From assembly GCA_000004985.1 (NCBI GenBank), contig GG739513.1: a stretch of DNA of 1,189 bases; one strand, written 5' to 3'. Below the pieces are notes generated by a model. That model worked only from the letters and a program-made list of their open reading frames with translations, did no database searches and was not told the origin of the DNA. Of this stretch, positions 1 through 1,189 are shown in pieces (the first letter of the stretch is position 1; each line of letters opens with the position of its first letter). The translations under genes and the position numbers were made by a program. This DNA comes from Naegleria gruberi. Its lineage: Eukaryota.

Positions 1-302
1 GCAAATGGGATAGTGTAAATTCTCTCATTCGACTCTATAAATTCCTGAACTGGAGCACACGTTTCACATGAACATGATAGAATAATATGGGAAATCTTGC
101 TATTGAGAGGTTGCAGGTGTTCGATAGCAACCTTGTTTTGGTTATTGTAAAGTTTTAAGCAGTGTTTTGCAATTGATTGAATAGCACTTTTAGATAGAGC
201 TTCCTTATTGGTCAATTGTTTGAGGAATGGAATAACTAGGTGATGAACAAACCTAATTGTAAAATTCGTACGGCTGATAAGGTTTCTTGCTAGCATTGAC
301 AT
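1..302 (-). CDS. 5' portion of a protein-coding gene of unknown function (hypothetical protein), running off the left edge. Candidate starts are ATG at 302-300 or 296-294. The frame is open up to the TAA at 386-384.
   Basis: By hand translation, minus-strand triplets complementary to + positions 383..3 contain no stop codon, so at least 127 codons run off the window. Translation from 302 reads MSMLARNLISRTNFTIRFVHHLVIPFLKQLTNKEALSKSAIQSIAKHCLKLYNNQNKVAIEHLQPLNSKISHIILSCSCETCAPVQEFIESNERIYTIPF... Every other frame in 1-310 has several stops. No Shine-Dalgarno motif precedes either ATG. The composition is unusual, with 0 Gly and 0 Asp in the 98 codons translated from 296, which lowers confidence. 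The ORF track omits it, presumably because it is incomplete. Confidence 0.4.
   Translation of the reverse strand, partial: MSMLARNLISRTNFTIRFVHHLVIPFLKQLTNKEALSKSAIQSIAKHCLKLYNNQNKVAIEHLQPLNSKISHIILSCSCETCAPVQEFIESNERIYTIPF
107..146 (+). terminator. Terminator-like hairpin with a T-rich tail. Probably coincidental, because it lies inside the minus-strand ORF.
   Basis: The stem 107-114/127-134 has 7 Watson-Crick pairs and one G-U pair, with a 12-nt loop. It is followed by GTTTTGGTTATTG. Confidence 0.15.
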
Positions 303-309
303 TACAAGA

Positions 310-540
310 TTGCAGGAAGCATCGTTTGATGAGTTGAGAATTTCCGAGAATGATCCAATAGTTTCTAGGATTTCCACATTTTTTTATGACTTGAGCAGAA
401 TGAATCAACTCCGTCCCTCATTAACCCTTAGCTATTATGACTTTTATTACCAGCGTAAAAAAATTGAAGATGAGTTGAAGACGCAGGGGCACATGTTCCT
501 TGTTGTTGAATGGCTAATCTCTATTTGTGGAAAAGAATAA
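310..540 (+). CDS. Dubious 76-codon ORF, likely spurious or an antisense-shadow ORF
   Basis: It is listed in the ORF track. It starts with TTG, and the first in-frame ATG is at 400-402. There is no SD-like motif upstream of either. It begins 8 bp from the minus-strand ATG at 302 and overlaps the open minus-strand frame across 310-383. An ORF of this length is expected by chance in six frames of an AT-rich 1.2-kb window. Confidence 0.12.
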   Translation: MQEASFDELRISENDPIVSRISTFFYDLSRMNQLRPSLTLSYYDFYYQRKKIEDELKTQGHMFLVVEWLISICGKE

Positions 541-692
541 AATGTTTTGTGTTAGATTGAAGTCTAATAATAAAAATATTAGAAAAACCAATCCAAAGAA
601 AATGCACGCACAAGACCAACACACCAATTTTGAAAGTAATGATCACTCTCATTACCTTCTATACTATTGAGTGAACAAATCATCATTGAGCA

Positions 693-701
693 ATGACTCA
701 T
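693..701. promoter_or_regulatory. 9-bp palindrome ATGACTCAT, which matches the AP-1/Gcn4-type TGACTCA core
   Basis: Read directly from the sequence (caATGACTCATaaa). The match to the bZIP consensus is exact. It has functional meaning only if the source is a fungal or eukaryotic promoter region. Confidence 0.2.
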
Positions 702-714
702 AAACATGAAGTGC

Positions 715-730
715 AAGAGGAATTCCTCTT
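715..730. repeat. Perfect 16-bp palindrome AAGAGGAATTCCTCTT with a GAATTC core. It is a candidate dimeric-regulator binding site or a hairpin.
   Basis: The sequence 715-730 is identical to its reverse complement. It lies 13 bp downstream of the ATGACTCAT palindrome. Confidence 0.5.
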
Positions 731-905
731 CTAACAAAATATCCTTCTATTCTGTCAAAAAACCTGCATCTTGTAGATTTTCACCTTAAAAAACACATTT
801 ATTATTAAACAATTAACTCAAAGATATATAGATTTCACTCAATTAAGTATTGAATCTTGGCCTCACCACTATTGATGGGTAATCGAAAGAATACTCTGGG
901 TGGAA

Positions 906-949
906 GATTAGTATCCTTTTGGTACTATTCAAGAGGAGAGAATTAGTAC
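906..949 (+). other. Two mutually exclusive hairpins that share the segment 921-930. This is a candidate alternative-structure RNA element of the attenuator or riboswitch-expression-platform type.
   Basis: Segment 906-915 pairs with 921-930 (9 of 10 positions, including one G-U pair), with loop CTTTT. Alternatively, 922-930 pairs with 940-949 (9 bp with a one-nucleotide bulge), with a 9-nt purine loop AAGAGGAGA. The direct repeat ATTAGTA at 907-913 and 942-948 flanks the inverted copy TACTATT at 923-929. Confidence 0.25.
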
Positions 950-982
950 AGTATTGGGCGAATGAAATATATCTTTATTTTC

Positions 983-1020
983 GATTTGTTGTTCATTTAC
1001 AACAAATCAATCCTTTTTTT
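983..1020 (+). terminator. Hairpin and T-tract resembling a Rho-independent terminator, on the + strand
   Basis: A perfect 9-bp stem GATTTGTTG/CAACAAATC spans 983-991 and 1000-1008, with an 8-nt loop. After a 5-nt spacer (AATCC) comes a run of 7 T at 1014-1020. The stem is AT-rich with 3 GC pairs. The spacer makes it a weak candidate. Confidence 0.3.
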
Positions 1021-1108
1021 GGTTCAAACAATTTTTGCCACTATCCACCAACCAAAAACCTATCGCCCTGCAATAATAGTCGTAAAAATAAACTTTTATT
1101 AGTCCTAG

Positions 1109-1130
1109 CTAGTCGCAAACAAGCGACTAG
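1109..1130. promoter_or_regulatory. Inverted repeat CTAGTCGC-AAACAA-GCGACTAG (8-6-8). It is a candidate operator or a hairpin.
   Basis: The perfect 8-bp arms were read directly from the sequence. It is preceded by an extra CTAG (CTAGCTAG palindrome at 1105-1112) and followed by AAAACAGGGGGAACCC. No T-run follows on either strand, so it is not a classical terminator. It lies about 45-65 nt upstream of the SD-like motif at 1174-1180. Confidence 0.35.
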
Positions 1131-1173
1131 AAAACAGGGGGAACCCTTGCCAATTTTTCATTTTCATAATACT

Positions 1174-1180
1174 AAAGAGG
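1174..1180 (+). promoter_or_regulatory. Shine-Dalgarno-like AAAGAGG motif, implying a + strand start codon just beyond the window end
   Basis: The purine-rich AAAGAGG lies 9 nt from the window end. All three + frames have stops at 1168-1183, so any downstream gene must start after 1183. The call holds only if the source is an SD-using prokaryote. Confidence 0.25.
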
Positions 1181-1189
1181 TAAATCCCA

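Follow-up and report, generated by a model that had tools for sequence, protein, structure and literature searches.

Host gene at the locus

The window, i.e. the whole stretch of 1,189 nucleotides analysed, carries on its minus strand parts of a protein-coding exon at both ends (Table 1). The open reading frame 383..1 (-) aligns with residues 595-721 of XP_002671957.1 at 99% identity (phmmer, E=1e-72, query residues 1-127), its single match among 1.84 billion representative proteins. XP_002671957.1 is a predicted protein of Naegleria gruberi with 786 aa, encoded by the gene NAEGRDRAFT_72971. In tblastn, 126 of 127 residues were identical; the one mismatch within 1..383 (-) is an isoleucine at codon 182..180 in place of a threonine in XP_002671957.1. 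A word-index search with a 100-aa fragment from the window yielded no match, a false negative, as the exhaustive phmmer search gave XP_002671957.1. The window is taken as nuclear DNA of N. gruberi, or of a strain or haplotype very near to it, because the single protein match is from N. gruberi and the window GC content of 34% fits the 33% of this species (PMC8296547).

NAEGRDRAFT_72971 is a lineage-specific orphan gene. XP_002671957.1 used as query matched itself only, contains no Pfam domain and has no related loci in metagenomes. Pfam matches of the exon fragment to Cytokin_check_N, Mak10 and SRI (E=0.03-0.1) were all sub-threshold and set aside, as was a sub-threshold match to phrog_23881 in PHROG (E=8e-4). 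The sequence-only reading placed the start of a minus-strand gene near 302. That methionine is residue 622 of the 786-aa protein, and the gene continues upstream.

Homology to the reference extends across the beginning of the open reading frame in an offset frame, with 87.5% identity between residues 582-597 of XP_002671957.1 and window positions 424..377 (tblastn, E=1e-5). At the homopolymer run the minus strand reads CAT AAAAAAA TGTGG, while HKNVE in the reference requires CAT AAA AAT GTG GAA. The run of seven instead of five bases may reflect a true mutation or an error in sequencing. At the right end, the last nine window bases read TGG GAT TTA on the minus strand, encoding W-D-L against R-D-L in the reference (580-582). 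Two of three bases agree in the R580 codon, and D581 and L582 continue in frame (1181-1189). The differences between window and reference, namely the 2 extra nt in the homopolymer run, isoleucine for threonine at 182..180 and tryptophan for arginine at the last base, may result from sequence quality or from a paralogous origin of the window.

Table 1. Features of the window (positions counted from its first base)
Feature	Position	Strand	Remark
Host exon, homologue or allele of NAEGRDRAFT_72971	1..383	-	Residues 595-721; continues past the left window end
Homopolymer, T7 on + / A7 on the coding strand	379..385		Reference protein requires 5; 2-nt frameshift
Host exon, residues 582-594 (LMRDGVDSFCSSHK)	383..424	-	Homopolymer difference puts it out of frame with the part downstream
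Putative left target-site duplication TAA (coding strand TTA, codon L582)	422..424		Reads TTAA with T421
Apparent inserted element, non-coding, 756 bp, 32.8% GC	425..1180		Missing from the reference coding sequence; removal restores the frame
Putative left terminal inverted repeat CCCTTAGCTATTATGA	425..440	+	Inverted-repeat pair
Perfect 16-nt palindrome AAGAGGAATTCCTCTT	715..730		Stem in folds of both strands
Perfect 10-bp hairpin GATTTGTTGT / ACAACAAATC (983-1008), then T7 run 1014-1020	983..1020		Adds to local folding excess on both strands
Perfect 8-bp hairpin CTAGTCGC / GCGACTAG, loop AAACAA	1109..1130		Stem in both folds
Putative right terminal inverted repeat TCATAATACTAAAGAGG (reverse complement CCTCTTTAGTATTATGA)	1164..1180	-	Inverted-repeat pair
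Putative right target-site duplication TAA	1181..1183		Preceded by G, so no TTAA on the right side
Host exon resumes	1184..1189	-	TGG GAT, W-D against R580-D581 in the reference

An insertion between codons 582 and 583

Judged against the reference protein, positions 425-1180 form a 756-bp insertion that has no counterpart in the reference allele. The insertion separates codons 582 and 583 of NAEGRDRAFT_72971 and falls within a coding exon. Removal of 425-1183 and shortening of the homopolymer run to five bases yielded 142 aa, of which 140 are identical to residues 580-721 of XP_002671957.1. None of residues 1-581 is encoded in 425-1183 (tblastn). The empty site is seen at the protein level only, where the reference reads R-D-L-M-R-D-G-V straight across the junction; the deduced DNA, GAT TTA ATG, contains TTAA. 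Exactly three bases are duplicated, because homology to the reference reaches position 424 and restarts at 1181.

Gapped alignment of CCCTTAGCTATTATGA (425-440) with CCTCTTTAGTATTATGA (from 1164-1180) gave 15 matches and three one-base gaps. Both inverted ends contain TATTATGA and directly adjoin the duplicated TAA. The inverted repeat alone is weak: an equal local score was obtained somewhere in 10% of Monte Carlo shuffles. Inverted repeat and TAA occurred together in 2.6% of shuffles, and a similar terminal match combined with TAA and a flank encoding xGG-GAY in none of 3000. The host flank past the right duplication comprises six nucleotides in the window, and the first of its two codons encodes W (TGG), not R.

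Content of the inserted sequence

Positions 384-1189 had been described as free of credible open reading frames on either strand. This holds for 541-1189, where no ORF of more than 52 aa starting with ATG, GTG or TTG lies wholly inside, and fails for 384-424, which encodes host residues 582-594. Stops are present in all three plus-strand frames across 541-1189, as reported. The minus-strand frames at the right end, given as open for at most about 26 codons, close after 5, 7 and 27 codons. Plus-strand frame 1 has 102 stop-free codons without ATG from 883 to the window end; this run is missing from the ORF lists because it goes off the end of the window. Shuffling 541-1189 (32% GC) under a first-order Markov model gave a mean of 66 +/- 15 codons for the longest open run. 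The scarcity of ORFs in 541-1189 is within chance, and the 102-codon run is comparatively long.

A six-frame pseudo-protein of 384-1189 had no protein match, and its only Pfam match was DUF1642 with E=0.16 and 12.9 bits against a cut-off of 27.8 bits. Decayed coding sequence and transposase remnants were rejected on the basis of this search. The suggestion of a decayed pseudogene applies to the host gene copy, which the insertion and the 2-nt frameshift disrupt, and not to the ORF-free DNA. A long regulatory leader of bacterial type and phage-derived DNA, also proposed, conflict with the eukaryotic nature of the DNA and with the absence of matches in bacterial, plasmid and phage collections. 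The length of the ORF-free stretch, called unusual for a prokaryote, concerns Naegleria DNA, with a genome that is 57.8% coding (PMC8296547).

The DNA collections scanned were GTDB bacterial and archaeal genomes, JGI metagenomes, IMG/VR, phages and plasmids, none of them a source of Naegleria genomes. In these collections, exact k-mers of the element (19-25 nt) had no match in genome, viral or metagenome contigs lacking Naegleria, as a eukaryotic source would lead one to expect, and blastn in distant mode gave none in the plasmid and phage sets, likewise without Naegleria genomes. ARAGORN detected no tRNA or tmRNA. An Rfam 15 cmscan of both strands at E<=10, covering group I/II introns, riboswitches and large ncRNAs, returned noise only (best 13-15 bits, E=3-6, gathering thresholds 41-65). 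The sequence-only reading had recognised no OLE, GOLLD, ROOL, tmRNA, RNase P, SRP, T-box or common riboswitch consensus elements.

The motifs cited as promoter-like are present, i.e. TATATAG at 825-831, ATGACTCAT at 693-701 and AGGGG at 1136-1140, as are A/T runs near 757-762, 788-793 and 1014-1020. Two features of a bacterial interpretation were discarded: AAAGAGG as ribosome-binding site for a start at 1189 is the terminus of the element, and the terminator-like hairpins at 983-1008 and 1135-1149 were dropped with the assignment to Naegleria. Minimum free energy z-scores for 541-1189 are -5.6 (+) and -4.9 (-). Local values below -3 occur at 541-660 and 841-1140 on both strands, inside the element only and absent from the exon. 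The many short palindromes of the element are taken to account for the strong folding of either strand. A global hairpin, as in a palindromic MITE, was rejected, since the folds of both strands show local stems only.

Interpretation and alternative explanations

Positions 425-1180 are probably a non-autonomous cut-and-paste (class II, TIR) DNA transposon in a host exon. Of the features of this class, a target-site duplication, abutting terminal inverted repeats and an empty site at the protein level were found. A transposase from an autonomous relative elsewhere would bind the short imperfect repeats at 425-440 and 1164-1180. The element would have been excised and then integrated at a TTAA/TAA target through a staggered cut, whose repair would have duplicated TAA at 422-424 and 1181-1183. 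The element itself has no coding capacity. The host frame enters the element as ...W-D-L-P-L-stop, which would truncate the protein after residue 582, and the seven-base run at 379-385 would be a second lesion that shifts the frame downstream. The reference locus would be expected to read contiguously ...GGGATTTAATGAGGGAC..., with 425-1183 absent.

A real insertion of another kind is unlikely. Positions 425-1180 would then be filler of a double-strand break (genomic DNA such as spacer of the multicopy rDNA plasmid) or a cloning or assembly chimera, and the apparent TAA duplication would be microhomology at the junction. The weakness of the inverted repeat taken alone (10% of shuffles) and the further irregularities of the window against the reference are in line with this. 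Against it stand a left junction that reads exactly TTAA|CCCTT, the matching TATTATGA-bearing termini abutting TAA at both ends, a combination found in only 2.6% of shuffles, and the Rfam scan, which gave neither rRNA nor another RNA family. A spliceosomal intron of at least 756 nt, present in the reference as well and left out of its annotated protein, is very unlikely. It would account for an ORF-less interruption of coding sequence in a species with about 0.7 introns per gene (1.7 exons per gene; PMC8296547). Nevertheless, the four possible boundary placements are TT..GG, TA..GT, AC..TT and CC..TA, none of them GT-AG, GC-AG or AT-AC, and a TT..GG or CC..TA intron is not something that a gene predictor would create. 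None of the GT/GC-AG pairs whose donor lies in the 150 visible nt preserves an open frame, and the mean intron of N. gruberi has only 203 bp (PMC8296547).

As no canonical intron joins 1184-1189 to 424, the reference DNA must be contiguous at the junction. This bears on an intergenic spacer or promoter, in which case two genes would have been wrongly fused in the 786-aa model, the downstream one starting at ATG 421..419 or 302..300. In favour are an ATG (M583) directly after the junction, a stop codon in the same frame just ahead of it in the window (432..430), TATA-like and TGACTCA motifs, and an average intergenic spacing in N. gruberi of comparable length, judging from the 57.8% coding share (PMC8296547). 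The nine nucleotides at 1181-1189, however, continue the reference protein in frame (0/3000 shuffles), which makes a spacer extremely unlikely. Of the earlier suggestion of a eukaryotic divergent promoter, the eukaryotic part stands with N. gruberi as the sole protein match, while the promoter part falls with the resumption of host coding sequence at 1184-1189. That the stretch is a regulatory leader or a gene for a large structured non-coding RNA is scarcely credible: the low z-scores over 541-1189 and in its local segments fit a structured RNA, but the excess appears on both strands, as expected of DNA palindromes and not of a strand-specific RNA. In addition, no Rfam family was found even at E<=10, and the DNA concerned is located within a coding exon and is missing from the reference allele.

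Under the transposon interpretation, 425-1180 would be a mobile element with other copies, and the difference from the reference may be allelic or between strains. DNA-transposon activity would have been recent enough for polymorphism and for the knockout of an orphan gene. Membership in a MITE family of N. gruberi that targets TTAA/TAA and is active now, or was until very recently, is rather doubtful; it is suggested by the polymorphism of the element between window and reference. Should such a family exist, the atypical junctions (piggyBac-like CCCTT termini with a 3-bp duplication) would point to a live heterolobosean transposase, possibly a lineage-specific piggyBac or PIF/Harbinger variant and a native tool for Naegleria genetics. 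The relevance is modest and concerns Naegleria genome dynamics and endogenous transposases for an organism that is hard to manipulate genetically. The main value is a correction: what was flagged as an ORF-free region of unusual length for a prokaryote is non-coding DNA of an ordinary eukaryotic kind, and the flagged neighbouring gene start is an internal methionine of a longer gene.

Comparison with known transposon systems

Repeats constitute 5.1% of N. gruberi, and piggyBac-class and CMC-EnSpm-class repeats have been reported in N. lovaniensis (PMC6125883). Introner elements resemble the element as non-autonomous TIR elements inside a protist coding exon. The element differs in that the insertion would truncate the protein: introner-style splicing was tested and ruled out by the lack of a GT/GC-AG pair in the visible sequence that reopens the frame. 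With CACTA / CMC-EnSpm elements, which have the termini CACTA...TAGTG, a 3-bp duplication is shared, but the ends of the element are CCCTT and CCTCT. Kolobok elements, reported in Naegleria, have a TTAA target and termini of the form 5'-RR...YY-3' (PMC9587614). The target and the presence in this genus agree, while the termini of the element are 5'-YY...RR-3' (CC...GG).

The 3-bp TAA/TTA duplication is a signature for recognising insertions of mPing (PMC10288884). An exact duplication of this kind is shared by the element with PIF/Harbinger (Tourist-like MITE, mPing) elements, as are the non-coding, AT-rich sequence and the short terminal inverted repeats, while its 756 bp are near the upper size limit of MITEs. 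mPing begins with GGCC, whereas the element begins with CC and ends with GG. Nothing was found that points to PIF/Harbinger transposases in Naegleria.

In piggyBac elements, CCCTT is the most conserved 5' motif reported for the terminal inverted repeats (PMC10813416). The left junction of the element, TTAA|CCCTT, corresponds to the canonical target followed by the conserved repeat start, and the termini 5'-CC...GG-3' and short inverted repeats of about 16 nt are likewise similar. The right junction differs, reading GAGG|TAAA (or GAG|GTAA) instead of GGG|TTAA, and the duplication has three instead of four base pairs. Of the TTAA expected on both sides, only the left one (421-424) is present, the right side reading GTAA/TAAA (1180-1184); variant duplications TAAA and GTAA have been reported for a few piggyBac elements (PMC10813416). 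Measured against the piggyBac repeat start 5'-CCC(T/A), the left end conforms with CCCTT, and the right end, which reads CCTCT in reverse complement and neither CCCTT nor CCCTC, is one C short. The element contains no transposase. Judging from its termini and target duplication, the superfamily may be piggyBac-like or PIF/Harbinger-like, with junctions that fit neither cleanly.

Host gene and source organism

The 127-aa minus-strand translation of the window matched exactly one of 1.84 billion representative proteins in an exhaustive phmmer search. The match, P0001 (E = 1e-72, 99% identity, residues 595-721, N-terminus not covered), is the Naegleria gruberi 'predicted protein' XP_002671957.1 (NAEGRDRAFT_72971), which has 786 aa and was seen on one 309-kb contig. 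P0001 lacks Pfam domains, and the representative proteins, those of other Naegleria species included, contain no further detectable homologue. NAEGRDRAFT_72971 is a lineage-specific orphan gene. A word-index protein search with a 100-aa query missed this 99%-identical protein, so that negatives of indexed searches with short queries are weak evidence. Collections of plasmid, phage, prokaryotic-genome, viral and metagenome sequences yielded nothing similar to the window DNA.

Because P0001 at 99% identity is the sole protein match, the DNA comes from N. gruberi itself or else from a strain or haplotype very close to it. With this origin, the premise of the sequence-only reading that the stretch is unusual for a prokaryote becomes void, while its eukaryotic alternative was correct in kind. 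The N. gruberi genome has 33% GC and is 57.8% coding; its genes have 1.7 exons each, and its introns a mean length of 203 bp (PMC8296547). The window (1189 nt) has 34% GC.

An insertion in the host exon

Residues 582-594 of P0001 (LMRDGVDSFCSSHK) were located by tblastn at 424..383 on the minus strand; none of residues 1-581 is encoded in 425-1183. Residues 582-594 and 595-721 are encoded in different frames, which meet in a homopolymer. This T7 run exceeds the length required by the reference by two bases and, at a distance of 40 nt on the downstream side of the insertion, shifts the host frame. The extra bases may be an error in sequencing the homopolymer, or else a real second disruption of the host gene, as in a pseudogenised allele. 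The coding strand of the window starts with TGG GAT TTA (W-D-L), where the reference reads ...S-R-D-L-M-R-D-G-V.... Deletion of 425-1183 together with a reduction of the run to five bases yields 142 aa, of which 140 are identical to P0001 580-721, and thereby identifies 425-1180 as inserted DNA that the reference coding sequence lacks. The mismatches are W/R and I/T. Given these two single-residue differences, the window stems from another allele, strain or copy than the reference, or has errors at the contig end. On the plus strand, the junctions read ...CCCTCAT/TAA/CCCTTAGCTATTATGA ... TCATAATACTAAAGAGG/TAA/ATCCCA.

Features of the window (positions in nt)
Feature	Position	Strand	Remark
Insertion	425-1180		756 bp, 32.8% GC; absent from reference coding sequence
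Target-site duplication TAA	422-424 and 1181-1183		exact, 3 bp; sequence reading
Terminal inverted repeats, imperfect	425-440 and 1164-1180		15 matches, 3 single-base gaps
T7 homopolymer (A7 on coding strand)	379-385	+	reference HKNVE needs five bases
I (ATT) versus T in reference	codon 182..180	-	comparison with P0001
W (TGG) versus R in reference	1189, last base of window	-	comparison with P0001
Perfect palindrome containing GAATTC	715-730		16 nt; inside element
Perfect stem, then T7 run	983-1008		10 bp; inside element
Perfect stem	1109-1130		8 bp; inside element

The reference allele lacks the 756 bp, since a gene predictor could not derive P0001 from DNA containing them; the empty site is seen at the level of the reference protein. 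In the present copy, the host frame reads ...W-D-L-P-L-stop into the element, and the predicted protein is truncated beyond residue 582.

The insertion is best read as a non-autonomous cut-and-paste DNA transposon with terminal inverted repeats (TIR), residing in an exon of the orphan gene. In this scenario, a transposase that acts in trans would bind the element at its short inverted ends and insert it into a TTAA/TAA target by a staggered cut, whose repair would duplicate the target. In Monte Carlo shuffles, an inverted match of equal score occurred somewhere in 10%, and an equal match followed by TAA in 2.6%; none of 3000 shuffles had such a match with both TAA and a flank encoding xGG-GAY. 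The TIR by itself is weak; the argument is carried by its combination with the exact recovery of the reference protein sequence. Beyond the right duplication, the host flank extends for just 6 nt (1184-1189) before the window ends. This short flank may indicate a break of the source contig at a repeat edge or at the margin of a heterozygous insertion. Captured filler DNA, as an insertion of non-transposon origin, or an assembly chimera is a real rival, albeit an improbable one.

Open reading frames and alternative readings

The absence of a credible ORF from 384-1189, as claimed from the sequence alone, holds for 541-1189, where no start-initiated ORF contained in full exceeds 52 aa; it fails for 384-424, which is coding. 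Stops across 541-1189 were present in all three plus frames, the minus frames at the right end closed after 5, 7 and 27 codons, and the sequence motifs named in that reading were found. The observation is partly confirmed and not anomalous. From 883 on, plus frame 1 stays open for 102 codons and runs off the right end of the window; the run has no ATG, lies entirely inside the element and showed no protein or Pfam similarity. The longest open run in Markov shuffles of 541-1189 was 66 +/- 15 codons, and when 384-1189 was shuffled with matched composition, a run of 102 codons or more arose about 5% of the time. The ORF scarcity is statistically unremarkable. Only the 127-codon minus-strand frame 383..1 stands out (p about 0.02). 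Antisense to the host exon lies a TTG-initiated plus-strand ORF of 76 aa (310-540; its frame is open from 247), which extends into the element. This ORF matches no family, is absent from the record of called genes and has a length near chance (rough estimate, p about 0.09).

A divergent promoter between two genes is contradicted by the host protein, which continues in frame at 1181-1189, and the proposed gene start at the ATG near 302 corresponds to the internal residue M622 of P0001. The evidence speaks against a spliceosomal intron: the 3-nt repeat allows four placements (TT..GG, TA..GT, AC..TT, CC..TA), none canonical, and no GT/GC-AG pair whose donor falls within the visible 150 nt leaves an open frame that reaches RDGVDSF. 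Six-frame queries for decayed coding sequence or transposase remnants gave no protein and no credible Pfam match. A structured ncRNA is unlikely, because the strong folding z-scores of 541-1189 (-5.6 and -4.9) occur on both strands; the matches from Rfam at E<=10 were all noise, at 13-15 bits, and a tRNA search of the window found none. Locally, excess folding occurs in 541-660 and 841-1140 alone and not in the exon. The palindrome and the hairpins explain much of the two-strand excess.

Comparison with known superfamilies

Kolobok elements are known in Naegleria and are TTAA-specific with RR...YY termini (PMC9587614); the CC...GG termini of the element do not match this. The element also has no CACTA termini. 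PiggyBac and PIF/Harbinger are the candidate superfamilies, between which the junctions do not decide. The left junction, TTAA/CCCTT, resembles piggyBac, in which CCCTT is reportedly the most conserved 5' TIR motif and TTAA the near-universal target (PMC10813416). The deduced empty site, GAT TTA ATG, includes TTAA, the CC...GG termini agree as well, and PiggyBac-class repeats have been annotated in N. lovaniensis (PMC6125883). Against piggyBac, the right junction is GAGG/TAAA, which leaves a duplication of only 3 bp in the sequence as it stands, and the right terminus begins with CCTCT. One might speculate that this end really reads ...AGGG/TTAA, should homopolymers in the window be undercalled, a possibility to which the 7-versus-5 run might point. 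In favour of PIF/Harbinger, the exact TAA duplication is the signature of mPing/PIF (PMC10288884). The element is most probably of an ordinary kind, represented here by a new or unclassified copy.
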